Below, piece after piece: positions 1,769 to 51,298 of a stretch of DNA of 64,000 bases (position 1 is the stretch's first letter; every line of letters starts with the position of its first letter). Source of the DNA: an uncultured Alphaproteobacteria bacterium. GTDB lineage: Bacteria; Pseudomonadota; Alphaproteobacteria; Rhodobacterales; Rhodobacteraceae. The stretch is taken from assembly GCA_942492375.1 (NCBI GenBank), contig CALOEL010000018.1, forward strand, positions 22,706 to 86,705. The letters are read 5' to 3'. A program made the translations under genes and the position numbers. The notes beneath the pieces were generated by a model, which did no database searches, was not told the origin of the DNA, and was given only the letters and a program-made list of their open reading frames with translations.

Positions 1769-3159
1769 GATGCGATCTCCTTGGTTCTGGAAGTTTCCGC
1801 CGGCATCATCGCATCTCTTGGCGACAATCCGATGAAGGTCAGTGCGGGGCCGGCGATATGGGCCATCGCCCGCGCCATCTCGGCCAGAGTCGTGGCGTGA
1901 ATCCGCTGGCCGGGCTGGCTTGCGCTTTCAACCGCGGTGACGGGCGTGTCGGGGGCCGCGCCATGCATCATCAGCCGGCCCTGGATGAACCGCGCCGATT
2001 TCTTTCCCATGTAGATCGCGGCGACCTCGCCCGGCTGCGCCAGTGCCCGCCAATCCTGCTCAGCGAAGCCGTTCATGTCATGGCCGGTCAATATCCGCAC
2101 CGCGCCGTTCCGTCCGCGACGGGTCAGGCTTTGGCCGATCGCGGCGACAGAGGCGGAGGCCGCGGTGATGCCCGGGATGATCCGCCAGTCGAGCCCCGCG
2201 GCCTGAACGGCTTCAATCTCTTCGTCCAGCCTGCCGAACACCGTCGGATCGCCGGATTTCAGCCGCACGACATGCGCGCCGGTCAGGCCGTGCCGGACGA
2301 TCAGGGCGTTGATGTCGTCCTGCGAAGTCGAGGGGCCGAACCCGGTCTTGCCGACATCGACCAGCAGCGCCTCGCGCCGGGCCAGTTCCAGCACGTCCGG
2401 CGTCACCAGCCGGTCATGGATCACCACGTCCGCCCGGTCGAGCGCCTTGCGCGCCTTCAGCGTCAGGAGTTCCGGATCGCCCGGACCGGCGCCGACGAAA
2501 TCGACATGGCCCCGCGTCGTGTCCGTCCCCAGATGCCGGTTCAGCAGCACATCGAGCGCCGCCTCTGCGCCGTCCGCGCCGTCGGCATCAAAGGCCCGCG
2601 GACCTTCGTCGAAATAGTAGTCCGCCCAGAAATCCCGCCGCTTGCGGCCCATCGGCAGTTTCTCGGCGACCGGGCGGAACGCCTTGCCGATCCGAGCCAG
2701 CAGCCCCAGTGACGGTGCGAGACGCTCTTCCAGATCCGCCTTGATCGCCCGTGCCAGCACCGGTGCCGCGCCTTCGGTGCCGATCGCCACCGTTACCGGA
2801 TCGCGGTCGACGATGGCGGGGGTGATGAAGGCGCTGTCTTCCAGATTGTCGACGATGTTGACCAATGCGCCTTCCACGGCGGCAATGGCGGCGGTCCGTG
2901 CATCTTCGGCGTGATCCTCGTCGGCGGCATAGAACAGCGTGGCGCCGGCGACGTCGCCGGCCTGAAGGGCGCGGCGGATCAACTCGATCCGGCCCGCCTC
3001 GGCCCAGGCGGCAATCTCTGGCGCGGGCCGGACAGCGAACACCGTGATCCGCGCTTCGGTCTTGAGCAGCAGGCGCAGTTTCGCCAGCGCGGCCTCGTTG
3101 CCGCCCGACAACACGATCCGGGCGTTCCGGACGTTCAGGAAGATGGGAAAATGCTGCAT
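1765..3159 (-). CDS. cysG: Siroheme synthase (uroporphyrinogen-III C-methyltransferase / precorrin-2 dehydrogenase / ferrochelatase)
   Basis: Internal ATG at 3159 gives MQHFPIFLNVRNARIVLSGGNEAALAKLRLL... (Rossmann N-domain), followed by the SUMT domain VDFVGAGPGDPELLTLKA...VVRLKSGDP. The 145-aa extension in the track (to 3594) is rejected. Confidence 0.9.
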   Translation of the reverse strand: MQHFPIFLNVRNARIVLSGGNEAALAKLRLLLKTEARITVFAVRPAPEIAAWAEAGRIELIRRALQAGDVAGATLFYAADEDHAEDARTAAIAAVEGALVNIVDNLEDSAFITPAIVDRDPVTVAIGTEGAAPVLARAIKADLEERLAPSLGLLARIGKAFRPVAEKLPMGRKRRDFWADYYFDEGPRAFDADGADGAEAALDVLLNRHLGTDTTRGHVDFVGAGPGDPELLTLKARKALDRADVVIHDRLVTPDVLELARREALLVDVGKTGFGPSTSQDDINALIVRHGLTGAHVVRLKSGDPTVFGRLDEEIEAVQAAGLDWRIIPGITAASASVAAIGQSLTRRGRNGAVRILTGHDMNGFAEQDWRALAQPGEVAAIYMGKKSARFIQGRLMMHGAAPDTPVTAVESASQPGQRIHATTLAEMARAMAHIAGPALTFIGLSPRDAMMPAETSRTKEIAS

Positions 3160-3294
3160 TGCGGCCTCTGGATTTCTGACCTTGAATATAGAACAATGTT
3201 CCTGATATTTGCGAGTGGGTGGCGCGAATAAGGAACGTTGTTCCGCTTCGCCCGATGTGAGATGAAAATGTTCCAACCAGCCGGAGGAAGCGGA

Positions 3295-3756
3295 ATGTCT
3301 GCCCAACTCGACGCCATCGACCGGAAAATCCTTGCCGAGCTGCAGCGGGACGCCAGCCAGTCGCTGGATGAAATCGCCCGAAATATCGGCTCGTCGAAGA
3401 CGCCGGTCTGGAACCGGATCCGCAAGCTGCGCGACCAGGGCGTGATCCGACAGCAGACCGTCCTGCTTGACCCGGACGCGCTGGGGCTGGAGGCCTGTTT
3501 CTTCGTCCTGATCCGGACGTCCGAGCATGAATCGGAGTGGCAGCAGGCCTTTCTGCGGGCCCTTCGCGACCGCCCCGAGGTGCTGGAAGCGCACCGGCTT
3601 GCCGGAGAGATCGACTATATCCTGAAGGTCCGCGTCGCCAATGCCCGCGCCTATGATATCTTCTACCAGGCGCTGATCTCGGAGGTGCGGATCTACAACG
3701 TCACGGCGCTGCTTTCGATGGAAGAGATCAAGTCGACGACGGTGCTGCCGGTCTGA
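3295..3756 (+). CDS. Lrp/AsnC family transcriptional regulator
   Basis: MSAQLDAIDRKILAELQRDASQSLDEIARNIGSSKTPVWNRIRKL... (HTH_AsnC plus RAM domain). GGAGGAAG Shine-Dalgarno sequence upstream of ATG 3295. Confidence 0.9.
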   Translation: MSAQLDAIDRKILAELQRDASQSLDEIARNIGSSKTPVWNRIRKLRDQGVIRQQTVLLDPDALGLEACFFVLIRTSEHESEWQQAFLRALRDRPEVLEAHRLAGEIDYILKVRVANARAYDIFYQALISEVRIYNVTALLSMEEIKSTTVLPV

Positions 3757-3759
3757 CTT

Positions 3760-5055
3760 TCACCGTTGCAGGTGCAAAGCCTGCAACCCGTGGAAATGGT
3801 AAAGGTTCGCATAGCGCGGTGTGTCCGCAATCCGAAGGCCGGGACAGCGCGCGAACAGGATCGGAAGGGATTGCTGCAGTTCCAGCCGGGCGAGGGGCGC
3901 GCCGATGCAGAAATGCACACCGGCGCCGAAGCTGACATTGGTCTGGACGGGCCGCCCCGGATCGAACCGGGCGGGTTCGTCCCAGCGCGACGGGTCGCGA
4001 TTTGCCGCGCCGAGAAGGCAGGCGATCTGACCGCCCTGCGGAATCGTATGCCGCCCGATCTCGATATCCTCGTAGGCCCAACGCTTGAACATGTGCAGCG
4101 GCGGGTCCTGGCGCAGGATCTCCTCGACCGTCGCCTCGACCCGGTCGGGCGCAAGCGCGGCGGCGGCCTGGTTCGATTCAAGCAGCGACTTCACGCCGTT
4201 GCCAAGCGTGTGAACGGTCGCCTCGTGGCCCGCATTCAGCAGGAGTATGCAGGTCGAGATGAGTTCTTCGGTGGTCAGGCGGCTGCCATCCTCTTCGGCG
4301 GCGATGAGGTGGGTGATCAGGTCGTCGGCCGGCTTGTCGCGCCGAAACGTGATGTAATCCGCAAGGAAGGCGGAGAACGCCGCCGCCGCGTCCGCAGCGG
4401 CGATTTCGTCTTCGGTGCTGCGCCGCGCCTGATACATGCCGACCATCGCGTTCGACCAGGCGAGCAGGTCGTCCGCCCGATCCTCGGGCACGCCCAGCAG
4501 CCGCGCGATGACGATCACCGGCAGTTTCTGGGCGAAGGTCGGCAGCAGATCGAACTCGTCGCCGTCGATGTCGTCGATCAGGCGATGCGACAGCGCCGAA
4601 AGCTCTGGCCCCAAAGCGGCGATTCTGCGGGAGGTGAAGGCGCGCAGCACGAGCCCGCGCAGCCGGGTGTGGCGCGGCGGTTCCAGTTCCAGCATCGAAT
4701 GATCCTCGACCGCCCAGAATTCCGCCTGATGAGCCGGCCTTGGCCGCTGCTGGCCGGCGGGAATTTCCCGTCCGAACCGGCGGTCCCGCAGGATCGCCCA
4801 GACGGCGGCGTAAGAGAGCGCACAGGGCAGGTCGTATTCGGACCAGTGGAAGATGGCGCCTGCCTTGCTGCGGGCGCGATCGTAGAACGTGTAGGGATCC
4901 TGCACGAAGCTGTCTGCGGTCGGATCCTGACTGATTTCCTGCAACGAACTTTCCTTTCCCCGACGGTCCGAACCCGGATCAACCGCGTCCGCGCCAGCCC
5001 TGTTTATGGCACGGGATTCTATGTTTTTCTTGCAGCAAGCCGCGCTTCGGTCCAT
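3760..5055 (-). CDS. Cytochrome P450
   Basis: Heme-binding loop FGAGVHFCIGAPLARLE and I-helix LLLNAGHEAT. Start is uncertain: ATG at 5055, or TTG at 4944 preceded by GGAAAGGAAAG. Confidence 0.85.
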   Translation of the reverse strand: MDRSAACCKKNIESRAINRAGADAVDPGSDRRGKESSLQEISQDPTADSFVQDPYTFYDRARSKAGAIFHWSEYDLPCALSYAAVWAILRDRRFGREIPAGQQRPRPAHQAEFWAVEDHSMLELEPPRHTRLRGLVLRAFTSRRIAALGPELSALSHRLIDDIDGDEFDLLPTFAQKLPVIVIARLLGVPEDRADDLLAWSNAMVGMYQARRSTEDEIAAADAAAAFSAFLADYITFRRDKPADDLITHLIAAEEDGSRLTTEELISTCILLLNAGHEATVHTLGNGVKSLLESNQAAAALAPDRVEATVEEILRQDPPLHMFKRWAYEDIEIGRHTIPQGGQIACLLGAANRDPSRWDEPARFDPGRPVQTNVSFGAGVHFCIGAPLARLELQQSLPILFARCPGLRIADTPRYANLYHFHGLQALHLQR

Positions 5056-5121
5056 GTATCTTCAGCCCTCTAGGCTATAGAGGCGCCAAAAAACTATGCC
5101 TGTCCATGGGAGGATATCCAG

Positions 5122-6123
5122 ATGAAGTTACTGACAACCGTTGCCACTGCCGCAGCCCTTGTCTTTGCTGCCGGTGCTGCGATCGCGCAGTGCGATGATG
5201 GCGAAATCGTCATCAAGTTCAGCCATGTCACCAATGCCGACAAACACCCGAAGGGCATTGCCGCCAACCTGCTGATGGAGCGTGTCAACGAAGAGATGAA
5301 CGGCAAGGCCTGCATGGAGGTGTTCCCGAACTCGACCCTCTATGACGATGATCAGGTGCTTGAGGCGATGCTGCAGGGCGACGTCCAGCTTGCCGCGCCG
5401 TCGCTGTCGAAATTCGAAACCTTCACCAAGCAGTTCCAGATCTACGATCTGCCCTTCATGTTCGTGAACATCGAGGCGGTGGACGAGTTCCAGAAATCCG
5501 AAGCCGGTCAGGCGATGAAGGAGTCGATGGCGCGCCGGGGCCTGATGGGGCTGGAATTCTGGCATAACGGGCTGAAGCAGTTCTCGGCCAACAAGCCGTT
5601 GATCCTGCCCGAGGATGCGGCCGGGCTGAAGTTCCGTGTGCAGCCGTCGGACGTGCTGGTCGCGCAGATGGAAGCGCTCGACGCCTCGCCGCAGCCGATG
5701 GCCTTCTCCGAAGTCTATGGTGCGCTGCAGACCGGCGTCGTGGACGGACAAGAGAACACCTGGTCGAACATCTACGGCCAGAAATTCTTCGAGGTCCAGG
5801 ACGGCGTCACCGAGACCAATCACGGCGTGCTCGACTATCTCGTGGTGGCCAGCACCGACTGGCTGGACGGGCTCGACCCCGAGGTGCGCGACCAGTTCCT
5901 GACCATCCTGAAGGAAGTCACGGACGAGCGGAACGCGGCGGTCAACCAGGTCGATCTGGAGGCCCGCCAGGCGATCCTCGACGCCGGCGGCACGATCCGC
6001 GAACTGACGCCCGAACAGCGCCAGGCCTGGGTCGATGCGATGAAGCCGGTCTGGGAGCAGTTCGAGGAAGGCGTCGGCGCCGACAACATCGCCGCCGCGC
6101 AGGAGATCAACGCCTCGATGTAA
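5122..6123 (+). CDS. dctP: TRAP transporter substrate-binding protein, DctP family
   Basis: Signal peptide MKLLTTVATAAALVFAAGAAIA, then IVIKFSHV...LAAPSLSKF...MAFSEVYGALQTGVVDGQEN, which resembles C4-dicarboxylate DctP. Confidence 0.9.
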   Translation: MKLLTTVATAAALVFAAGAAIAQCDDGEIVIKFSHVTNADKHPKGIAANLLMERVNEEMNGKACMEVFPNSTLYDDDQVLEAMLQGDVQLAAPSLSKFETFTKQFQIYDLPFMFVNIEAVDEFQKSEAGQAMKESMARRGLMGLEFWHNGLKQFSANKPLILPEDAAGLKFRVQPSDVLVAQMEALDASPQPMAFSEVYGALQTGVVDGQENTWSNIYGQKFFEVQDGVTETNHGVLDYLVVASTDWLDGLDPEVRDQFLTILKEVTDERNAAVNQVDLEARQAILDAGGTIRELTPEQRQAWVDAMKPVWEQFEEGVGADNIAAAQEINASM

Positions 6124-32067: not shown

Positions 32068-32881
32068 ATGGCGGTTGGCATATTCGATTCGGGGCTGGGC
32101 GGGCTGACCGTGCTGAGCGCGGTGCAGCGGCGTCTGCCCGATGTTCCCTTCGTCTATCTCGGCGACAACGCCCATGCGCCCTATGGCGTGCGCACCGCCG
32201 ACGACATCTATGGCCTGACCACTGCCGCCACGCAGCGGCTGTTCGATGCGGGTTGCGACCTGGTGATCCTGGCCTGCAACACCGCCAGCGCCGGCCGCGC
32301 TGCGCCGGATGCAGGAGGCCTGGGTGCCGTCGGGCAAGCGGGTGCTGGGGGTCTTCGTGCCGCTGATCGAGGCCTTGACCGAACGGCAATGGGGCGACAA
32401 CAGCCCGCCGCGCGAGGTCGCGGTCAAGCATGTGGCATTGTTCGCGACGCCCGCGACGGTGTCGAGCCGGGCGTTTCAGCGCGAGCTTGCCTTTCGCGCC
32501 ATCGGGGTCGATGTCGAGGCGCAGGCCTGCGGCGGGGTGGTGGACGCGATCGAAGAGGGCGATCTGATCCTGGCCGAGGCGCTGGTCCGGAGCCATGTCG
32601 ATGCGCTGAAGCGCAAGATGCCCGATCCGCAGGCGGCGGTCTTGGGCTGCACCCATTACCCGCTGATGGACGAGGTCTTTCAGGATGCGCTGGGGCCGGG
32701 CGTCGCGGTTTATTCGCAGGCCAATCTTGTGGCCGAGAGCCTTGCGGATTATCTGGAACGGCATCCCGGCATGACCGGGCCCGGACAGGAGAGCCTGTTC
32801 CTGACCACCGGCGATCCGCGCAAGGTCTCGATGCGGGCGACGCAGTTCATGCGCCGGCAGGTCGAGTTCCAGGCGGCCTGA
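32068..32881 (+). pseudogene. murI: Glutamate racemase MurI, reading frame broken by a 1-nt insertion near 32293
   Basis: The N-terminal part ([16 protein letters not shown]...[11 protein letters not shown]...LACNTASA) is in frame 1. The C-terminal part (...[11 protein letters not shown]...LGCTHYPL...) is in frame 2. Total span is 814 nt, i.e. 3n+1. Confidence 0.8.
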
Positions 32882-32918
32882 ACGGAGCCGGATGTCATTC
32901 CGAAGCCAGGGAGAGGCA

Positions 32919-33947
32919 ATGACCCAGAAGATCGCGATACTCGGAGCCTCGGGCTATACCGGCGCGGAGCTTGTCCGGCTGATCGCCACCCATCCCTCGA
33001 TGGAGATCGCGGCACTGTCGGGCGACCGCAAGGCGGGGATGGAGATGGCCGAGGTGTTCCCGCATCTGCGCCATCTCGACCTGCCGAAGCTGGCGACGAT
33101 CGACGAGATCGACTTTGACGGGATCGACCTGGCCTTTGCCGCGCTGCCGCATGCGATGAGTCAGGAGATGATCAGCGGGCTGCCGAAAGGGCTAAAGGTC
33201 GTGGACCTTTCTGCCGATTTCCGGCTGCGCGATCCGGCGGCCTACGAAAAGTGGTATGGCAAGCCGCATGCCGCGGTCGAGATGCAGAAAGAGGCGGTCT
33301 ACGGGCTGACCGAGTTCTACCGTGACGAGATCCGGTCGGCGCGGCTGGTGGCCGGCACCGGCTGCAACGCCGCGACGGTGCAATTCGCGCTGCGGCCATT
33401 GATCGAGGCCGGGCTGATCGATCTCGATGAGATCATCTGCGACCTGAAGAACGGTGTTTCGGGGGCCGGTCGCTCGCTGAAGGAGAACATGCTGTTTGCC
33501 GAGCGCTGCGAGGATGCGATGGCCTATTCGGCGGGCGGCACGCACCGGCACCTTGGCGAATTCGACCAGGAGTTCAGCCGGATCGCCGGGCGCAATGTCG
33601 AGATCGTCTTTACCCCGCATTTGATCCCGGTCAATCGCGGCATCCTTGCGACCTGCTATGTGAAGGGCGAGGCCGAGGCGATTCATGCCGCCTTGGCGGA
33701 ACGCTATGACAAGGAGCCGTTCATCGTCACGCTGCCGTTCGGCCGGATGCCGGGGATCTCGCATGTGCAGGGATCGAACTTCGCCCATATCGGCGTGGGC
33801 GGCGACAGGGTGGCCGGTCGGGCGATCGTGGTCGCGGCGCTCGACAATCTCTGCAAGGGGTCTTCGGGCCAGGCAGTGCAGAACGCGAACCTGATGCTGG
33901 GGCTGGAGGAGACGGCGGGGCTGATGCAGGCGCCGGTCTTCCCGTAA
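32919..33947 (+). CDS. argC: N-acetyl-gamma-glutamyl-phosphate reductase
   Basis: Internal ATG at 32919 ([26 protein letters not shown]...) preceded by GGGAGAGG. 342 aa. Confidence 0.9.
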
Positions 33948-33957
33948 GGAGCGGAAT

Positions 33958-34401
33958 ATGAAGGGGTTGAAGAAGAAGCGCAGGATTCAGGTCATCGCGG
34001 TCGCGGTGGTGGCGCTGGTGCTGTCCACGGCCTTGATCGGCTACGCGATGCGGGACGGAATCAACTTTTTCCGCGCGCCGGCGCAGGTCCTGGCGGAACC
34101 GCCGGGGCCGAACGAGGTGTTCCGGATCGGCGGGCTGGTCGAGGATGGCACGCTTGTGCGCGGGCAGGGCGAGACAATCACCTTCCGGGTGACCGACGGC
34201 GCCGCCTCGGTTCCGGTCAGTTATACCGGGGTGCTGCCGGATCTCTTCAAGGAGGGCGAGGGCATGGTCGGGACCGGACGGCTGGTCGACGGTGTCTTCG
34301 AGGCGTCGGAGATCCTGGCCAAGCATGACGAGACCTATATGCCGAAAGAGGTCATCGACGCGCTGAAGGAGCAGGGCGTCTATGTCGATCCGAACAGTTG
34401 A
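33958..34401 (+). CDS. ccmE: Cytochrome c maturation heme chaperone CcmE
   Basis: MKGLKKKRRIQVIAVAVVALVL...FRIGGLV...AKHDETYMPKEV (heme-binding His motif). 147 aa. Confidence 0.9.
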   Translation: MKGLKKKRRIQVIAVAVVALVLSTALIGYAMRDGINFFRAPAQVLAEPPGPNEVFRIGGLVEDGTLVRGQGETITFRVTDGAASVPVSYTGVLPDLFKEGEGMVGTGRLVDGVFEASEILAKHDETYMPKEVIDALKEQGVYVDPNS

Positions 34402-34409
34402 AGGGCGGT

Positions 34410-34496
34410 GACGCGCGTTCCGCGCGTCGCTGATTTCAGGGCGCGTCCTGCGGACGCGACGATGCCTCCGGCGGGGATATTTGCCAGACAATGAAG
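34410..34496 (+). repeat. Structured intergenic repeat, copy A
   Basis: Hairpin GACGCGC-gttcc-GCGCGTC, hairpin GCGTCC-tgc-GGACGC, then the box GATGCCTCCGGCGGGGATATTTGCCAGACAATGAAG. The box matches copy B at 34 of 36 positions. Confidence 0.8.
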
Positions 34497-34555
34497 GACA
34501 GGCGGCCTGCGCGCGGTGGCTTGCGGGCGGGTTAACCAATTCGACGCAGCCTTGG

Positions 34556-34569
34556 GGTGAATTTTCACC
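34556..34569 (+). promoter_or_regulatory. Perfect 14-bp palindrome immediately upstream of the muramidase gene
   Basis: GGTGAATTTTCACC, 17 nt before ATG 34586. Confidence 0.35.
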
Positions 34570-34585
34570 AGCCTGGCGGATGTCC

Positions 34586-35197
34586 ATGAAGACTGTCGAT
34601 GCGATTGCCGATGAAATCCTGGCCCGCGAGGGCGGCTATGTTGACGATCCGGACGATCCGGGCGGCGCGACCAATCACGGCGTGACGATCGGCACGCTGC
34701 GGCGGCTGCGCATGGACCTGACCGGCGACGGCCGTGTCGATGCCGCCGACGTGGCGGCTTTGTCCCGCGACCAGGCAAAGGCGATCCTGATCCGGGATTA
34801 TTTCGACCGGCCGCGAATCGCGGAACTGCCGGAGCCGCTACAGGCGTCGGTTTTCGACATGTATGTGAATGCCGGCGCCAACGCGGTGGAGATCCTGCAG
34901 CGGCTTCTGCGCGACATGGGACAGGCGATCGCCGTGGACGGCATCATCGGGCCGCGCACGATCGCGGCGGCGGCGCTGGCGCAGGCGGCGGCGCCGGGCC
35001 ATCTGGCGGATGCCTACGGGATCGCGCGGCGCAATTACTATTACGCGCTGGCCGACCGGCGTCCGGCCAGCCGCAAATATGCCCGCCGCCGCGATGGCGG
35101 CAAGGGCGGCTGGATCCTGCGCGCCGAGACCTTCATGTCGCGCCGCTATCATCTGACCGAGGCCGAACATGCGCGGCGGGTGGCGGCATGGGGCTGA
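34586..35197 (+). CDS. Glycoside hydrolase family 108 N-acetylmuramidase with PG_binding_3 domain (holin-associated endolysin)
   Basis: MKTVDAIADEILAREGGYVDDPDDPGGATNHGVT (GH108 catalytic motif) and ...VDGIIGPRTIAAA (peptidoglycan-binding). Overlaps the holin start by 10 nt. Confidence 0.8.
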   Translation: MKTVDAIADEILAREGGYVDDPDDPGGATNHGVTIGTLRRLRMDLTGDGRVDAADVAALSRDQAKAILIRDYFDRPRIAELPEPLQASVFDMYVNAGANAVEILQRLLRDMGQAIAVDGIIGPRTIAAAALAQAAAPGHLADAYGIARRNYYYALADRRPASRKYARRRDGGKGGWILRAETFMSRRYHLTEAEHARRVAAWG

Positions 35198-35721
35198 TCG
35201 AGGGGATCGTGACGCTGCTGTTCGGCGGCGGTCGCAACGCGCTGCGGGAGACGCTGGAGGTCTTCCGCGGCAATGCCGAGGCCGGCGAGGTACGAGACAC
35301 CGCCTACCGTTCGGCGGCGCTGGCGCAATTGTCGGCGGAATTCGCGGTGGAGCGGAAGGGCTGGTTCGACCGGACGGTGGATGCGGTCAACCGGCTGCCA
35401 CGCCCGGCTTTGGCGCTGGGGACACTGGGCCTGTTCGTCAGCGCGATGGCCGATCCGATCTGGTTCGCGGCGCGGATGCAGGGCATCGCGCTGGTTCCCG
35501 AGCCGCTCTGGTGGCTGCTGGGCGGGATCGTTTCATTCTATTTCGGGGCGCGGCACCAGGCGAAGGGGCACGACTTCCAACGCTCGATCGCGCTGACACT
35601 GGCGCGGGCGGCCGAGGTCTCTGACCGGCTGGGCGCGCTGGAGGCGCTGGGTGGGCGCGCGCGCGACGCGCTGTCGGGCAATGCCGCCCTGGCGGACTGG
35701 AGGGCGTCCGATGACGGATAG
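35188..35721 (+). CDS. 3TM-type holin (GTA_holin_3TM-like)
   Basis: 177-aa ORF with an N-terminal hydrophobic segment MGLIEGIVTLLFGG and TM spans ALALGTLGLFVSAMADPIWF and PLWWLLGGIVSFYFG. Architecture and pairing with the GH108 enzyme match those of the Rhodobacter GTA lysis genes. Confidence 0.7.
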   Translation: MGLIEGIVTLLFGGGRNALRETLEVFRGNAEAGEVRDTAYRSAALAQLSAEFAVERKGWFDRTVDAVNRLPRPALALGTLGLFVSAMADPIWFAARMQGIALVPEPLWWLLGGIVSFYFGARHQAKGHDFQRSIALTLARAAEVSDRLGALEALGGRARDALSGNAALADWRASDDG

Positions 35722-35890
35722 CCTCTTTCTGTCGCTGCTGACCGAGAACGGACCCTGGGTGCTACTGGTCTTCTACCTTCTCTACCGTGACTTCCAGAAG
35801 GATCAGGCCACTCGCGACCTGCTGAACAAGAACACGTCGGTCCTGACCGAACTTGCGGTTCTGATCCGCGAGCGGCTGCCGCGCAACTGA
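35711..35890 (+). CDS. Hypothetical 59-aa single-pass membrane peptide, translationally coupled to the holin
   Basis: ATG 35711 overlaps the holin stop by 11 nt. MTDSLFLSLLTENGPWVLLVFYLLYRDFQKDQATRDLLNKNTSVLTELAVLIRERLPRN. High GC3. Confidence 0.55.
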   Translation: MTDSLFLSLLTENGPWVLLVFYLLYRDFQKDQATRDLLNKNTSVLTELAVLIRERLPRN

Positions 35891-35904
35891 TGGGAGCATG
35901 ATGC

Positions 35905-36066
35905 ATGCCAAGCAAGCTGACCGAAGCGCAGGAACGCAACCGTCGGGCCGCGGAGGATCTGGACCAGGCACTCAAGGACTGCCTGGCCGCTATCCGGGGT
36001 CGGCCGGAAGCTGTCGTCGAAGGGCGGCTTCGGGTGATCGCCGGCGGGCGGGCTGCGCGCGATTGA
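35905..36066 (+). CDS. Hypothetical 53-aa soluble helical peptide (below the ORF-track length cutoff)
   Basis: My own translation: MPSKLTEAQERNRRAAEDLDQALKDCLAAIRGRPEAVVEGRLRVIAGGRAARD. GGGAG 8 nt upstream. Its GC3 is much higher than that of the overlapping 75-aa track ORF at 35898-36125. Confidence 0.35.
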   Translation: MPSKLTEAQERNRRAAEDLDQALKDCLAAIRGRPEAVVEGRLRVIAGGRAARD

Positions 36067-36134
36067 CGGCGCTTCCACCGAAGTGTGACAGCTTGTCTAT
36101 TGGCGCGGCCGCACGAACAGACTAGTGTGCCGCC

Positions 36135-38105
36135 ATGTTGGTTGAACTTGGACATTTCGCGCTGATCCTGGCCTTCTGCGTCGCCATCGTGCAGGCGCTT
36201 GTCCCAATGGCGGGAGCCGCGTCGGGACGCCGCGCCTGGATGGCTGTCGGGGAACCAGCCGCGGTCACGCAGGTTGTTCTGATCGGCTTCGCTTTCGCTG
36301 TGCTTACGCATGCCTTCGTGACCTCGGATTTTTCCTTGCGGCTGGTCGTCGAAAACTCGCATACCGACAAGCCGATGCTCTACAAGGTCACCGGGGTCTG
36401 GGGAAACCACGAGGGCTCGATGCTGCTCTGGGTCCTGATCCTGGCGCTGTTCGGCGCCTCGGCGGCGGTCTTTGGCGGCAACCTGCCCGATAGCCTGCGG
36501 GCACGGGTGCTGGCGGTACAGGGCGCGATCGGCGCGGCCTTTCTTGCGTTCATCCTGTTCACCTCGAATCCCTTCCTGCGGCTGGCCCGGCCGCCGATGA
36601 ACGGCGATGACCTCAATCCGCTTTTGCAGGATCCCGGCCTGGCGTTTCATCCACCGTTTCTCTACCTCGGCTATGTCGGGCTTTCGATGTCGTTCAGTTT
36701 CGCCGTAGCGGCGCTGATCGAAGGCCGGGTCGATGCCGCCTGGGCGCGCTGGGTCAGGCCCTGGACGCTGGCGGCCTGGATGTTCCTGACCGTCGGGATC
36801 GCGCTGGGATCATGGTGGGCCTATTACGAGCTTGGCTGGGGCGGGTTCTGGTTCTGGGATCCTGTGGAGAATGCGAGCTTCATGCCCTGGCTGCTCGCCG
36901 CGGCCCTGCTTCATTCCGCGATCGTGGTCGAGAAGCGCGAGTCGCTGAAGGCCTGGACGATATTGCTCGCGATCCTCGCGTTCGGGTTCTCGCTGATCGG
37001 GACGTTCATCGTGCGGTCCGGTGTGCTGACATCGGTTCACGCCTTCGCCAATGATCCCGAGCGCGGGGTGTTCATTCTGATCATCCTCGGCGTCTTCATG
37101 GGAGGCGCGCTGACGCTTTACGCGTTGCGGGCGGGGACAATGGAGGCGAAGGGTGTTTTCGCCCTGGCGAGCCGGGAAACCGCGCTGGTGCTGAACAACA
37201 TCCTACTTGCCGTCGCGGCCTTCGTCGTGTTCGTCGGTACGCTCTGGCCGCTTGGTGCTGAGCTTTTGCTGGGGCGCAAGCTGAGCGTCGGCGCGCCGTT
37301 CTTCGACGCAGCCTTCACGCCGTTTATGGTCGCGCTGGCGGTGATCCTGCCTGTCGGCGCGATCCTGCCATGGAAGCGGGCGCGAATCGAACGGGCGGCA
37401 CGGCCTCTCGTGCCGGCACTTGTGCTGGCCATCGCGTTGGGCGGCCTTGTCTTCGCCATGCAGACCGGTCGGTCCGCCCTGGGCCCGGTCGGCGCGGCGC
37501 TGGCGGTCTGGTTGGTCGCTGGATCGGTGACAGATCTGTGGCTGCGCGGCGGACGGGGCGATCCGGTGCAGAAAGCTCGCCGCATCTCGCGCCTGCCACG
37601 CGCCGATTGGGGCAAGTTCCTGGCCCATTCGGGGCTTGGGATCACGATCTTCGGTATCGCGGCGATCACTGCCTGGCAGGTCGAGGATATCCGTGTGGCC
37701 GAGGTCGGAGAGACGTTCGAAGTGGCGGGGTACCAGATCGCGCTGAACGGGATTACCGAGGCCAGGGTGGACAACTACATCACCACGACGGCGGATATGT
37801 CGGTCTTTCGGGATGGCGCGGAAGTGGCGCGGCTTTATCCGGAAAAGCGGGTCTACCCGGTGGCCCAGATGCCGACAACCGAGGCCGCGATCGCAAATGG
37901 CGTGTTGCGCGACATCTACCTGGTGATCGGCGATCCGCAAGATGGCGGCGGCTGGGCGGTGCGGACCCATATCAAGCCCTTCGCGAACTGGATCTGGGCG
38001 GGCGCGATCATCATGGCGATGGGTGGCGTGTTCAGTCTGACGGACCGCCGATACCGGGTGGCAGCGGGCGCGCGGCGTCGCCGGGCGCCGGTGCCTGCCG
38101 AATGA
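36135..38105 (+). CDS. ccmF: Cytochrome c-type biogenesis heme lyase CcmF
   Basis: [14 protein letters not shown]...[15 protein letters not shown]...[20 protein letters not shown] (WWD-type motif). 656 aa. Confidence 0.95.
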
Positions 38106-38548
38106 AGCGACTTGCGCTGATTCTCTGCCTTCTGGCGGCACCGGTCTTTGCGGTGCAGCCCGACGAGGTTCTGGATGATCCGGCACTCGAGTCGCGCGCA
38201 CGCGATATCAGCGCGGGGCTGCGCTGCCCGGTCTGCCAGAGCGAGAGCATCGACGATTCGAATGCCGATATCGCGCGCGATCTGCGGCTGCTGGTGCGCG
38301 AACGGCTGGTGGCCGGCGACAGCGACGCCGAGGTGCTGGATTTCGTCGTGGCGCGATATGGCGAATACGTGCTGCTGGAGCCCACGGCGCGTGGGGCCAA
38401 CCTGGTCCTGTGGATCGCGGGGCCGGCGATGCTTGTCCTGGCGATATTGATCGGCGGGCTTTATGCGCGCCGGCGATCGGCCGGCGCCGTGCCCGAGGCG
38501 CTGAGCGGCGAGGAAGAGGCGCGTCTGCGCGAAATAATGGACGACTGA
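38102..38548 (+). CDS. ccmH: Cytochrome c-type biogenesis protein CcmH
   Basis: ATGA overlap with the ccmF stop. [17 protein letters not shown] signal peptide, [16 protein letters not shown] motif. 148 aa. Confidence 0.9.
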
Positions 38549-42432: not shown

Positions 42433-44499
42433 GTGGCCCCACTGGCGCGGATCGCCGAGGCCGTTCAGGCGCAGCGCGGCCATCTGTTCGCTTGGGTTCC
42501 GGTCGGCCTGTCGGCGGGGATCGGTGGCTACTTCGCGCTGGGATCGGAGCCGGGGCAGGTGCACTACGCCGTGCTGGCGGGTGCGATCCTTTGTCTTCTG
42601 GCGCTTCTGGTCCGTCTAAGCGAACCGTGGCGGCCGCCGGCGGTCTTCCTGCTTGCGGCCATGGCGGGGGTGATGCTGACGGGCGCACGGGCGCATATGG
42701 TGGCCGAGCCGGTGCTCGGCTACCGCTACTACGGCCCGATCGAGGGGCGGATCGTGGCGGTCGACCGGTCGGTATCCGACGCGGTGCGGCTGACGCTCGA
42801 CCGCGTCGTGCTGCGCGACATGGCGCCGCGACGCACGCCCGACCGCGTCCGGGTCTCGCTGCATGGCCAGCAGGGCTACATCACGCCCGAGCCGGGGTTG
42901 ACCGTGATCCTGACCGGGCATCTCTCGCCGCCCTCGGGCCCGGTCGAGCCGGGGGGCTTCGACTTCCAGCGGCAGGCCTGGTTCGACGGGCTGGGGGCGG
43001 TCGGTTACACGCGCACTCCGGTGCTGGCCCTGCGCACCGCCGAGGAGGGCGCCGCCGGGCTGGCGGTGCACCGGATGCGGATGCGGATATCCTCGGCGGT
43101 GCAGCGCATCCTGCCCGGCGAGGACGGCGCCTTCGCCGCCGCGCTGATGACCGGCGACAGGTCCGGCATGAGCAAGGCGACGACCGAGGATCTGCGCGCG
43201 TCGAATCTGTCGCATCTGCTGGCGATTTCGGGCCTCCATATGGGACTTCTGACCGGGTTCATCTATGCGCTGATCCGATACGGGCTGGCGCTTTGGCCCT
43301 GGGTTGCGCTGCGCTGGCCGATCCGGAAATGGGCGGCGGTTTCGGCGCTTCTCGCGGGCGGGTTCTACCTCGCGCTGTCGGGCGGCAATGTCGCGACGGA
43401 ACGGGCTTTCGTGATGGTGGCGGTCATGTTCCTGGCGGTGCTCTTCGACCGCCGGGCGATTACCCTTCGGGCGGTCGCCATGGCCGCCGTCATCATCCTC
43501 GTATTCCGGCCCGAGGTGCTGCCCGAGCCCGGATTTCAGATGTCCTTTGCCGCGACGACCGCGCTGGTCGCGGCGTTCGGAGCGCTACGCCGCTGGCAGG
43601 GCTGGGCGCCGCCGCGATGGCTGCGCCCGGTGGTTGCGGTGGTGATCTCCTCTGCTGTTGCCGGGATGGCCACGGCGCCGGTCGCGGCGGCGCATTTCAA
43701 CCGGTTCGCGGATTACGGTCTTTTGGCCAATCTTCTGTCGGTGCCGCTGATGGGGCTGATCGTGATGCCGGGGGCGGTCCTGACTGCCTGCCTGGCGCCT
43801 CTGGGGCTGGGCTGGGTCGGCCTGTCGGTGATGCAACCCGCGATCCACTGGATCCTGGCCGTTGCGCGTCACGTGGCGGCGATGGAGGGCGCGGTCAGCT
43901 ATGTGCCCGCGCCGCCGGTCTGGGTGCTGCCCGCCTTGGCGCTGGGGATGCTCTGGTTGATCCTCTGGCAGGGCCGGCTGCGCTATGCGGGGGTGGCTCT
44001 CGCGGCGTTTGCCGCCTTTTTCTGGGCGGGTGCGGACCGGCCCGTGGCGCTGATCTCCGACTCCGGCGGGCTGGTTGGTGTGATGACACCGTCGGGACGG
44101 GCACTGAACAAGCCGAAGGGAGAAGGCTTCGCGGCGCTCAACTGGCTCGAGAACGACGGCGATGCGGGCGACCAGGCCGAGGCGTTCGGGCGGGCCGGCT
44201 TCACCGGGCAGAAGGGCGCGCTGTCTTTCGATGTCTCGGGGGTCCGGGTCATGCACCTGTCGGGGCGCGGGGCGGCAGACAGGGTCGCCGCGGCCTGCCA
44301 GAAGGCAGGGCTGGTCATTCTGGCGGCCGAATGGGTGGGCGGTGCACCCTGCAGCCTCTTGGACCGCAAGGCGCTTTCACGGTTGGGCGCGGTGGCGCTT
44401 TACGCCGAGGACGGCGCATTGCACGCGATCGGCGCGAAGACAGGTGCCGGCGAGAGATTGTGGAACTCTGCCCGTATCCGGTCCGCAATGGCGCCTTGA
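42433..44499 (+). CDS. comEC: ComEC/Rec2 family DNA internalisation channel protein
   Basis: 688-aa polytopic ORF with the competence-domain block ...ASNLSHLLAISGLHMGLL.... GTG start preceded by GGAG. I saw no HxHxDH metallo-beta-lactamase motif in the C-terminal region. Confidence 0.8.
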   Translation: MAPLARIAEAVQAQRGHLFAWVPVGLSAGIGGYFALGSEPGQVHYAVLAGAILCLLALLVRLSEPWRPPAVFLLAAMAGVMLTGARAHMVAEPVLGYRYYGPIEGRIVAVDRSVSDAVRLTLDRVVLRDMAPRRTPDRVRVSLHGQQGYITPEPGLTVILTGHLSPPSGPVEPGGFDFQRQAWFDGLGAVGYTRTPVLALRTAEEGAAGLAVHRMRMRISSAVQRILPGEDGAFAAALMTGDRSGMSKATTEDLRASNLSHLLAISGLHMGLLTGFIYALIRYGLALWPWVALRWPIRKWAAVSALLAGGFYLALSGGNVATERAFVMVAVMFLAVLFDRRAITLRAVAMAAVIILVFRPEVLPEPGFQMSFAATTALVAAFGALRRWQGWAPPRWLRPVVAVVISSAVAGMATAPVAAAHFNRFADYGLLANLLSVPLMGLIVMPGAVLTACLAPLGLGWVGLSVMQPAIHWILAVARHVAAMEGAVSYVPAPPVWVLPALALGMLWLILWQGRLRYAGVALAAFAAFFWAGADRPVALISDSGGLVGVMTPSGRALNKPKGEGFAALNWLENDGDAGDQAEAFGRAGFTGQKGALSFDVSGVRVMHLSGRGAADRVAAACQKAGLVILAAEWVGGAPCSLLDRKALSRLGAVALYAEDGALHAIGAKTGAGERLWNSARIRSAMAP

Positions 44500-44589: not shown

Positions 44590-45276
44590 TCAGTAGGTGC
44601 GGATCAGTCCCACAAGCCGGCCCTGGACCTTGACCTGATCCTCGCGAAAGACGCGGGTCTCATAGGCCGGATTTGCGGCTTCCAGCGCGATGGCGTTGCC
44701 TTTGCGGCGGAACCGCTTCAGAGTCGCCTCATGTCCTTCGACCAGCGCGACGACGATATCGCCGTTATCCGCTGTCGAGGTTTCCCGGATCACCACCACG
44801 TCGCCATCGTTGATCCCGGCGTCGATCATCGAGTCTCCCTTGACCTCCAGCGCGTAGTGCTGGCCGGATCCCGACAGCATCGACCCCGGCACCGCGACGT
44901 TATGCGACACCTCGCTGATCGCCTCGATCGGGACGCCCGCCGCGATCCGGCCCATGACGGGCAACTCGACGGCATCGGCCACGACCGGCATCGCACGGCG
45001 CGGCGGGTCGCTGCGGTCGCCTTCGATGACGCGGGGTTTGAAGCCCGAGGACTTCTCCATCGCATCAGGCAGCTTGACGATTTCGAGCGCCCGGGCGCGA
45101 TGCGCGAGACGCCGGATGAATCCACGCTCTTCCAATGCGGTGATCAGGCGATGAATGCCGGATTTCGACCGCAGATCCAGCGCCGTCTTCATCTCGTCGA
45201 AGGAAGGCGGTACTCCGTCACGCTGAACGCGCTTGTGGATGAATTCCAACAGTTCCAACTGTTTCTTGGTCAACAT
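44590..45276 (-). CDS. lexA: SOS repressor LexA
   Basis: [56 protein letters not shown]..., plus a C-terminal S24 peptidase domain (GDSM...VVALV...ATLKR). 228 aa. Confidence 0.95.
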
Positions 45277-49591: not shown

Positions 49592-51235
49592 ATGTTCAAC
49601 AGGCAGAACCGGGGGTCAAGACATCCCGGTCGACAGGCAGGCAGCAGGACGGAGGAATCGGGTTTGGGGCGCGGATTTTTGGCGGGTCTGGTCTGGGGCA
49701 GCATCCTTTCGGTGATGCTGGTCTGGATGGCTTCGCAGATGGGAGGCATGTTCGAGGTGCTGAAAACGCCTGACGAGGTCGCGGAAATCGCGCCCGAGGC
49801 CGAACAGGTCGATGTTCCGGAACCGATCGCTGTCGAGCCCCTCGAATCCGAAGCGGACGATGCGCCCGACCGCGATGCCGCCGATATCGCGCCAGAGGAT
49901 GTCGCGGCGCTGCCGGATGTCGAGGCCGCGCCGCCGGCCGCTCCGATCGATGAAATCCCCGACGCCGTGCCTGCGCCGGCCGATCCCGCGCCGGTCGCAG
50001 AGGACGAACCCGCGGTCGCCCCGGAGGCTGCCGATGTGGCGACCGAACCCGAAGCGCCGGCGGCCGAGGCCGCGCCGGTTCTGACAGCGACATACGACCC
50101 GCCGCAGAGGGTTGAGGACCTCGCTCCGCCGGCAGACCAGCCCTCTGCCGAGGAAACGCCGGCAATCGCGGACAGTGCCGGACTGCCGGAATTCGGCAAG
50201 CCGATCGTCGTCGAGCCTGACCCGCCGTCGCAGCCGGAAATTCTTGCCGAGACCGCACCGGAAGCCCCCGAGGCGCGACTGGTCGAGGCGCCCCGGACGC
50301 CAGAGGCGAGGGCGATGCCGGAGGCCGCGCCGGTTCCCGACATCCCGCCGGTTGCCGAAGCCGGCCCGGCGCCGCTGCCGGAGCCTGCGGAAAGTCCGGA
50401 TGTCGAGACTGCGGAGCTGGACGAGCAGCTTCCGCGCCTGATCGAGCCTTCGGAGGGTCTGACCAATCTCGCGCCGAACGTGAAGGTGAACCGGCTGCCC
50501 GCCATCGGCCGCGCGCCGGAAGAACCCGAAGCCGAAGCGGAGCCGGATCTGGACGAACCGGAGGGACCGGCGCTTGGCCGCTATGCCGCGCCCTTCTCCA
50601 ATCCGTCGGGCCGGCCGCTCATGGCGATCCTGCTGCTCGATGAAGAGGGCCAGCCGGCCGGCGGTACCGAGATGGCGGCGTTTCCCTTCCCGGTCAGCCA
50701 TGTCGTCGATGCCGCACGGCCCGATGCGGCGGAAGCGATGCAAGCCTACCGGTCGGCCGGGCGCGAGGTCGTCGCGATGACGCCGCTGCCGGACGGGGCC
50801 GGGCCGCGTGATGTCGAGGTCGCCTTCGAAACCTATCTTGACCGGGTGCCGGAAGCCGTGGCGGTGATGGACACCGAGGCGGCCGGGTTCCAGTCGGGCC
50901 GGCCCGTCGCCTCGCAGGTGGCGGAGATCCTGGCCGCGCGCGGGATGGGAATGATCACCTATCCGAAGGGACTGAACTCGGCGACTCAGGTGGCGGAGCG
51001 TGAAGGTGTGCCGGCCAAGCTGGTGTTCCGGGAATTCGACGCCGAGGGCCGGGACAGCGCCGCGATCCAGCGATTCCTCGACCAGGCGGCGTTCCGCGCC
51101 GGGCAGCAGAGCGGCGTGATCCTGGTCGGGCATAACCGGCCGGAAACGGTGGCGGCGCTTCTGGAATGGGGGCTGGGGAACCGGGCGGCGACGGTGATGC
51201 TGGCGCCGATCTCGGCGGCATTGCTGGCGGAATGA
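49592..51235 (+). CDS. Divergent polysaccharide deacetylase (YibQ/DUF610-like) with an N-terminal TM segment and a long acidic Pro/Ala/Glu-rich linker
   Basis: TM segment [19 protein letters not shown], about 250 aa of low-complexity PAPE-rich sequence, then a C-terminal globular domain (...[12 protein letters not shown]...VAMTPLP...[18 protein letters not shown]). The family call is tentative. Confidence 0.65.
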
Positions 51236-51278
51236 GGGGCGGGTGGGCCGGAACGGCCTGACGGGTCCGACCGGGGGT

Positions 51279-51298
51279 GTCCACATGTGGACGTTTTT
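51279..51298 (+). terminator. Intrinsic terminator downstream of the YibQ-like gene
   Basis: GTCCA-CATG-TGGAC palindrome followed by GTTTTT. Confidence 0.6.

Follow-up and report, generated by a model that had tools for sequence, protein, structure and literature searches.

The closest described relative of the locus reported here is the gene pair rcc00555/rcc00556 of Rhodobacter capsulatus, recognised by Hynes et al. (2016) as release genes of the R. capsulatus gene transfer agent (GTA; RcGTA) (PMC5026251). Both genes are required for release of the agent and lie at a distance from the structural cluster (PMC5026251). Across the Rhodobacterales the pair lies between cycJ (ccmE) and a heme lyase gene, and in Ketogulonicigenium, where the lysis locus is absent, these two flanks are adjacent (PMC5026251). 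Hynes et al. concluded that both the structural cluster and the lysis cassette have been passed down vertically from the order's last common ancestor (PMC5026251). The lysis genes are controlled by phosphorylated CtrA (CtrA~P) and GafA, and putative CtrA half-sites are present in the rcc00555/6 promoter (PMC9638019). The function and synteny of the pair are also treated in PMC3423380 and PMC13236601. Here we describe a lysis locus in a 64,000-nt window of contig CALOEL010000018.1, which derives from an uncultured member of the Rhodobacteraceae; all coordinates are positions in this window. The locus encodes an endolysin, a holin and two small proteins that we refer to as m1 (59 aa) and m2 (53 aa). 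From its gene families and setting, it is very probably a Rhodobacterales GTA lysis locus, orthologous to rcc00555/rcc00556 and located at the ancestral position between ccmE and ccmF.

An original prediction, made from the DNA letters, proposed four same-strand open reading frames (ORFs) between ccmE (ending at 34401) and ccmF (starting at 36135), and all four were borne out by ORF calls. The genes form a tight chain in which the endolysin overlaps the holin by 10 nt, the holin overlaps m1 by 11 nt, and a gap of 14 nt separates m1 from m2; both overlap lengths had been predicted exactly. The first product was expected to be a GH108 muramidase with a peptidoglycan-binding domain, and Pfam identifies both (Glyco_hydro_108, 5.9e-27; PG_binding_3, 1.5e-22). 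The three-transmembrane (3TM) holin is a member of GTA_holin_3TM (PF11351, 4e-27), and matches to all three models are well over threshold. The muramidase also matches the NCBIfam equivalog NF040573, 'holin-associated N-acetylmuramidase' (351.6 bits, cutoff 240, 200 of 200 model positions), and PHROG 315, endolysin (1.3e-34). Its start needed revision. There is no in-frame start codon at 34556, where it had been placed; the ORF opens at a TTG at 34481, and the conserved start is the ATG at 34586 (MKTVDAIA...), giving a protein of 203 aa. This start is kept across more than 70 related loci. A scan of the endolysin sequence for hydrophobic segments found neither a signal peptide nor a signal-anchor-release (SAR) segment. 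Without a hydrophobic N-terminus, the enzyme should thus need the holin to reach the cell wall. We scored 5870 homologues of the holin, and the best 120 listed are all PF11351. The ratio of nonsynonymous to synonymous substitution rates (dN/dS), calculated over the loci also used for m1 and m2 (below), is lowest for ccmE (0.16), followed by the endolysin (0.17) and the holin (0.22).

Scanning of species-representative genomes identified the holin in at least 577 genomes, and the best 80, all of them Paracoccaceae, were taken for comparison. Endolysin and holin are present in 80 of 80 of these species. The arrangement of ccmE, lysis genes and ccmF, for which a synteny survey had been suggested, is conserved: upstream of the endolysin are ccmE (68/80) and argC (66/80), and downstream are ccmF (74/80) and ccmH (68/80). 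The overlapping junctions that had been read as typical of lysis modules are also widespread, as the 10-nt overlap of endolysin and holin occurs in 74 of 79 related loci. A Brevirhabdus metagenome-assembled genome (MAG) and an uncultured alphaproteobacterial MAG contain the nearest relatives of the window locus. Families and synteny therefore support the core reading, a GTA endolysin-holin pair of the R. capsulatus type between ccmE and ccmF, as right but not new, since it has already been published. By orthology with RcGTA, for which these steps are established, the holin would permeabilise the inner membrane of those few cells in which GTA particles are produced; the cytoplasmic GH108 muramidase would then gain access to the wall, and the cell would burst and let the particles out. 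Features of the locus are collected in Table 1.

Table 1. Genes and putative control signals of the lysis locus and its flanks, in window positions.
Feature	Position	Strand	Basis or remark
argC	32892-33947	+	ORF call
ccmE (cycJ), upstream flank of lysis locus	33958-34401	+	Pfam CcmE 8.3e-31
G+C-rich 12-bp hairpin, 5 nt past ccmE stop	34406-34432	+	free energy (dG) -21.9 kcal/mol, z -4.26
GTTAACC, putative CtrA-type half-site/promoter motif	34531-34537	+	TTAAC 54 nt before endolysin ATG
Leader hairpin over endolysin ribosome-binding site	34543-34584	+	dG -15.9, z -1.2
Endolysin, GH108 + PG_binding_3	34586-35197	+	Pfam, NCBIfam, PHROG, conserved start
Holin, GTA_holin_3TM family	35188-35721	+	PF11351 4e-27, above gathering score
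m1, 59 aa	35711-35890	+	160 homologues, dN/dS, holin overlap
m2, 53 aa, soluble helical	35905-36066	+	shared core motif (RNxxAAxxLDxALxxCL), dN/dS
Sigma-70-like ccmF promoter motif, TTGGCG-N17-TAGTGT	36100-36128	+	ends 6 nt before ccmF ATG
ccmF (heme lyase subunit), downstream flank	36135-38105	+	Pfam CcmF_C 2.5e-114, Cytochrom_C_asm 2.3e-53
ccmH	38102-38548	+	Pfam CcmH 7e-48; start confirmed; ATGA overlap with ccmF (38102-38105)

The interval between the holin stop codon and ccmF is a slot of variable content. It is empty in 31 loci, including those of Ruegeria, Roseovarius and Tropicibacter, where the spacer is 59-135 bp. Four Actibacterium-type loci (L033, L073, L071 and L036; 216-232 bp) encode a short peptide (roughly 50 aa, two hydrophobic helices) for which no family match was found. 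An XhlA-like protein with an N-terminal coiled coil and a C-terminal transmembrane (TM) helix is encoded in 13 loci (266-494 bp). The window and seven relatives have m1 followed by m2 of type A (413-576 bp). In 16 loci (780-900 bp) m1 is followed by m2 of type B and by a third gene, m3, that encodes a protein of about 140 aa with four TM helices and without a family match. One further locus (L067; 2458 bp) has the same three genes and then approximately 1.7 kb of further sequence before ccmF. Immediately behind the holin, the XhlA-like gene (66-79 aa) is found in 13 further species of Paracoccaceae (L017, L070, L008, L013, L049, L038, L063, L026, L041, L018, L006, L004 and L011). In 12 of these species its start precedes the holin stop by 4-14 nt, a junction like that of m1. 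All ten of the ten XhlA-like proteins tested match Pfam XhlA (best E 2e-10), and PHROG 1193 is matched at 4e-12. Slot types follow clades on the ccmF tree, and thus appear to have been inherited vertically, with occasional replacement or loss.

The m1 protein consists of an N-terminal hydrophobic helix (GPWVLLVFYLLY) followed by a charged C-terminal helix. The earlier description of a 59-aa single-pass peptide overlapping the holin was correct as to the overlap; the single-pass label rests on a hydrophobic stretch that is borderline (best 17-residue Kyte-Doolittle mean 1.49). We found 160 homologues, annotated as 'hypothetical' proteins, and those with a named source are all from Paracoccaceae. 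Their alignment has 19 invariant columns (GPW..LVF.LL.RD.QKD.A.R). A HMMER search of 1.84 billion representative proteins recovered only 24 clusters, and the family is therefore narrow. In all 25 m1 loci the start of the gene overlaps the end of the holin, by 4, 8 or 11 nt, and the conserved DWR codons of the holin contain its Shine-Dalgarno sequence, CTGGAGG. The dN/dS of m1 is 0.23, and in both m1 and m2 variability by codon position decreases in the order 3, 1, 2. By these measures m1 and m2 are real genes under purifying selection.

Window m1 has no significant match in Pfam, PHROG, NCBIfam or PADLOC, and profile searches of the PDB with the m1 and m2 family alignments returned no match. 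The window protein does not match Holin_BhlA (PF10960) even at E 10, and the gathering threshold was not reached. Weak Pfam matches to Holin_BhlA were found in 19 of 36 m1 relatives (best E 0.001), and hhalign of the m1 family against six phage BhlA proteins aligned 23 columns (E 3e-4, probability 39%). The aligned part is the hydrophobic GP[WF]..L...LL segment only. In six Firmicutes phages a gene of BhlA type is located beside a second holin and an endolysin (amidase). Thus m1 fails formal membership in BhlA, yet it is built and placed like BhlA. Other identities were considered for the small proteins and rejected. A similarity of m1 to YvrJ was supported by no scan, the recurring weak match being Holin_BhlA. 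Neither m1 nor m2 matches XhlA (PF10779), and hhalign against the XhlA-like slot genes gave probabilities of 0.1% for m1 and 2% for m2. They are also not spanins, because m1 extends only about 35 residues past its hydrophobic helix, too short a tail, and m2 has no lipoprotein signal (neither a hydrophobic N-terminus nor a lipobox).

The m2 ORF was confirmed as predicted, and its product is a soluble helical protein, as it had been described before. A word search found only four close homologues. The core RNxxAAxxLDxA[LV][RK]E[CV]L is shared with the 41-46-aa ORF that follows m1 in other loci. An ORF with this motif lies behind m1 in at least 24 of 25 m1 loci (L042 is unclear), which answers the earlier question of whether the two small genes co-occur. 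Type A has a dN/dS of 0.33 and type B one of 0.41. Window m2 has no Pfam match even at E 10, and none in PHROG, NCBIfam or PADLOC. A type II toxin resembling ParE was considered and rejected, as the sole match is to ParE_toxin at E 0.021 (15.8 bits, cutoff 23); it came from one type-A relative of m2 (locus L055) and not from the window protein.

Pairs resembling m1 and m2 are also present in phage-like contigs. In L115 (38.9 kb, GC 45%, with an integrase) a PF11860 muramidase gene, a gene for a 132-aa protein, m1-like and m2-like genes and a gene for a 152-aa protein with multiple TM helices follow one another in this order (2895-5819). L117 (412-1267) contains an m1-like gene, an uncalled m2-like ORF and a true m3 (hidden Markov model E 8e-21), and L108 (161-531) contains an m1-like and m2-like pair. 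In L113 (5001-6039) an m1-like gene is located behind a gene for a 1552-aa Laminin_G_3 protein that resembles a tail fibre. From these contexts, m1-m2(-m3) would be a mobile module tied to late or lysis regions of phages. Relationships of m3 to the 4-TM gene that follows the holin in phage contig L106, and to the 152-aa gene of L115, were looked for and rejected, there being no detectable homology in either case.

On balance we favour a role for m1 and m2 in lysis, as accessories associated with the holin that would tune or assist permeabilisation. In this role m1 would be a BhlA-like single-pass membrane peptide and m2 its small helical partner, together forming a module of phage derivation. 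Promotion and delay of permeabilisation would fit the sequences equally. The position after the holin appears to be used by phages and GTAs alike for a small membrane protein that partners the holin. As read from their junctions, endolysin, holin, m1 and m2 constitute one translationally coupled chain.

Several features upstream of the endolysin may insulate this cassette from the transcription of ccmE. The median spacer between ccmE and the endolysin is 79 nt. In the window a G+C-rich hairpin lies just past the ccmE stop, and none of 200 shuffled sequences was as stable. It is terminator-like, with a weak U-run (AUUU) and the tail AUUUCAGG; a strict terminator scan, which needs 5 T in 8, made no call for it. 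In 59 of 79 loci the endolysin ATG is preceded at 45-64 nt (median 54) by TTAAC, usually as (G)TTAACC, and the same test found it in none of the upstream regions of ccmE (0/66), ccmF (0/74) and ccmH (0/27). In the window the GTTAACC is followed by a conserved CAGCCTT at 34547-34553. Between TTAAC and the start codon is a hairpin. Over the 45 nt before the endolysin ATG the mean hairpin z in 79 loci is -2.46, with 58% of loci below -2, compared with means near 0 and 3-9% below -2 for the regions upstream of ccmE, ccmF and ccmH in the same loci. Pairing of the Shine-Dalgarno region (-15 to -5) is 0.75 versus about 0.5 in these controls. With dinucleotide-preserving shuffles, ten of the hairpins have z of -3.9 to -6.9, and the sequences of their arms are unrelated. 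The sense strand is the more stable in 52 loci and the antisense strand in 26 (p 5e-5), and 12% of pairs are G-U; thus, RNA structure is favoured over a DNA palindrome. The geometry is regular: the 5' arm starts approximately 15 nt after TTAAC, the loop centre is 32.5 nt after it (interquartile range 30.5-34), and the 3' arm ends approximately 2 nt before the ATG. A scan of 33900-36300 against Rfam found no family.

These features suggest how a lethal cassette might be kept silent under ccmE transcription. Upstream insulation would involve the hairpin after ccmE, a CtrA-type promoter at TTAAC, and the hairpin in which the endolysin Shine-Dalgarno sequence is paired. Were TTAAC the -35 element, transcription would start in the loop or the 3' arm, and transcripts from the GTA promoter would have a free ribosome-binding site. 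Because the loop centre is about 32 nt after TTAAC, such transcripts would be free of the 5' arm and open to translation. Transcripts running on from ccmE would contain both arms, and would be either terminated or translationally locked. As the four genes are translationally chained, blocking the first ribosome-binding site would be enough to silence all of them. This model of a promoter inside a hairpin is possible, and we would place it somewhat short of probable.

Downstream, ccmF may be served by a separate promoter. The motif was found by comparative alignment, a plain sigma-70 scan of the region having given nothing. In 58 of 74 loci a match to TTGNNN-N16-18-TANNNH stops 4-14 nt short of the ccmF ATG, the distance being 6-7 nt in 56; the corresponding counts for ccmE and the endolysin are 0/66 and 0/79. 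Since the motif abuts the ATG, the ccmF-ccmH mRNA is predicted to be leaderless, and probably is. With a promoter of its own, ccmF-ccmH would thus need no transcription through the lysis genes. Also present in many loci (e.g., L022, L032 and L047), approximately 55-65 nt before the ccmF ATG and upstream of the promoter motif, is a GCGACAATGTGA box. It is often palindromic (TGCGAC-N3-GTCGCA) and may be a regulator site; near 36085-36095 the window reads GTGTGACAGC.

Certain results count against the reading developed above, and it has alternatives. The cassette might not belong to a GTA at all, being instead the remnant of a degraded prophage, or a standalone module for autolysis or bacteriocin release. 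Pairs of endolysin and holin genes at 55-70% identity do occur without ccm flanks in 20 viral contigs of IMG/VR (L088-L107), several of which encode a DUF2730 membrane-anchored coiled-coil protein (105-130 aa) at the holin stop, followed by Mu-like packaging genes. The window itself has no GTA structural genes, and neither a GTA structural cluster nor a prophage was found within its 64 kb. The same survey, in agreement with the earlier remark that no phage structural genes are nearby, found no structural, integrase or tail genes of phages among the 20 largest other ORFs of the window, all of which are housekeeping genes. What speaks for the GTA is that the cassette occupies the same chromosomal position in 68-74 of 80 species, with slot types that follow clades, and thus has a long history of vertical inheritance; that it is under purifying selection comparable to that on ccmE; and that its R. 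capsulatus orthologues are needed for GTA release despite their location away from the structural cluster (PMC5026251). Chromosomal copies have TTAAC and the phage copies do not; in the latter the hairpin signal is weak (mean z -0.72). Both features therefore belong to the domesticated chromosomal copy, and an origin of the window cassette outside the GTA system is very unlikely. It is less easy to dismiss the idea that m1 and m2 are unrelated to lysis and are hitchhikers in a permissive slot, with functions in immunity or exclusion, in addiction, or as helpers of cytochrome c maturation. The two genes lie directly upstream of ccmF and lack family annotation, and a relative of m2 has the weak ParE_toxin match described above. 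No match to m1 was found by tblastn against 50,697 GenBank phages, and a pattern scan of IMG/VR gave no confirmed relative. The resemblance of m1 to BhlA is weak and limited to its hydrophobic segment; homology is suggested but unproven. Moreover, m1, m2 and the other slot genes are missing from 31 of 80 loci that keep endolysin and holin, including those of Ruegeria, whose relatives make GTAs, and slot genes must thus be dispensable for GTA release generally. Set against these points are the overlap of the m1 start with the holin stop in 25 of 25 loci, with a Shine-Dalgarno sequence inside holin codons, and the promoter that ccmF keeps downstream of both genes. In addition, the alternative occupant of the slot, XhlA, is a family of phage lysis cassettes, and the distant m1-m2 module adjoins a muramidase gene in a phage-like contig. 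We therefore consider hitchhiking unlikely, although it deserves to be kept in mind, and retain accessories of the holin as the preferred reading of m1 and m2.

The hairpin before the endolysin is open to a different interpretation, as the terminator of argC-ccmE or as a DNA palindrome bound by a regulator, in either case with no role in translation. It lies within the short spacer between ccmE and the endolysin, and T-runs follow a few of the copies. In the window this hairpin is itself weak (z -1.2), and a separate, stronger one is located right after ccmE. RNAalifold predicted no pairs on a MAFFT alignment of 30 TTAAC-to-ATG regions, in which the arms are out of register. There is no consensus fold, and the claim for a hairpin thus rests on z values of individual sequences relative to control genes and not on covariation; the transcription start proposed in our model is given by geometry only. 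Most copies lack a U-tract, however, and the structure is downstream of TTAAC, stops 2 nt (median) short of the ATG, and has as its 3' arm the G-rich Shine-Dalgarno region, all of which count against this interpretation. A protein site of defined sequence is made less likely by the lack of conservation in the arms, just as a palindrome in DNA is by the greater stability of the sense strand. A hairpin without translational function thus seems rather unlikely to us. When control of translation is combined with the other proposals, into a holin 'docking slot' that in many Paracoccaceae has time and again captured phage-derived membrane modules (XhlA-like or m1-m2(-m3)) chained translationally to the holin, m1-m2 as new holin regulators or co-holins, and an insulator formed by a promoter inside a hairpin, with the endolysin ribosome-binding site exposed only in transcripts from the CtrA/GafA promoter, the whole is doubtful and is put forward tentatively.

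Other ORFs of the window in the neighbourhood of the locus include purL, a LysR regulator, an acyltransferase, gltX, comEC, lexA, moeA, trpC and a transketolase. Upstream, murI (glutamate racemase) seems to be split over two frames, with its N-terminal and C-terminal parts in separate ORFs (32068-32922 and 32309-32881), and this may be an assembly frameshift or a pseudogene. Downstream, comEC (42433-44499) and lexA (44590-45276) are 6-9 kb from the lysis cassette. In R. capsulatus, homologues of DNA-import genes are needed for the capability to receive GTA DNA, and LexA influences GTA production; the proximity of comEC and lexA to the cassette may be coincidental. Also present is an ORF of about 550 aa at 49592-51286, a region with coding-like G+C content at third codon positions on both strands; the minus-strand product has no Pfam match.

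The core finding alone re-identifies a published locus, and the additions, if true, are of moderate interest to specialists. In the literature on GTA lysis that we searched, some of it in the form of titles and abstracts, an accessory gene resembling XhlA or BhlA, a control hairpin and m1/m2 are not mentioned. The companion genes m1 and m2, the variable slot behind the holin and the insulating control signals are apparently new relative to that literature. The proteins m1, m2 and m3 and the XhlA-like protein are candidates for extra lysis components in a system described so far as endolysin plus holin. A promoter of its own, a hairpin at the ribosome-binding site and a leaderless ccmF promoter would provide a testable answer to the question, raised by the original prediction, of how a lethal cassette can be co-oriented with an essential respiratory cluster. 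The contrast between chromosomal and phage copies points to the gain of these control features in the course of domestication. We know of no spanin or other outer-membrane step in Gram-negative GTA producers.

Among known systems, RcGTA (Hynes 2012/2016; Westbye 2013; Fogg 2012) is the most similar. The window shares with rcc00555-rcc00556 both protein families, the gene order and the overlapping junction, as well as the cycJ/ccmE and ccmF flanks, the separation from the structural cluster and a putative CtrA half-site. It differs from the RcGTA locus in the addition of two translationally coupled small genes, m1 and m2. The combination of a holin and an endolysin with a small single-pass protein of the XhlA or BhlA kind, in one coupled module, is found in the defective Bacillus prophages PBSX (xhlA-xhlB-xlyA) and SPbeta (blyA-bhlA-bhlB). 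Sister lineages within the Paracoccaceae carry a true XhlA-like gene where the window has m1. PBSX and SPbeta differ in their Gram-positive host and their amidase endolysins, and have no counterpart to the soluble m2. The cassettes of Mu-like Rhodobacterales phages (L088-L107) share the GH108 endolysin and the 3TM holin, and several have a third gene at the holin stop; unlike the window, this gene is DUF2730 and not m1, the ccm flanks and TTAAC are lacking, the hairpin is weaker, and packaging genes follow. Finally, LypABC of Caulobacter crescentus likewise places the lysis function apart from the GTA structural cluster and ties it to GTA regulators (PMC13236601). LypABC is CARD-NLR-like, however, and works by an entirely different mechanism, with neither holin nor endolysin, and its cells become ghosts without bursting (PMC13236601).

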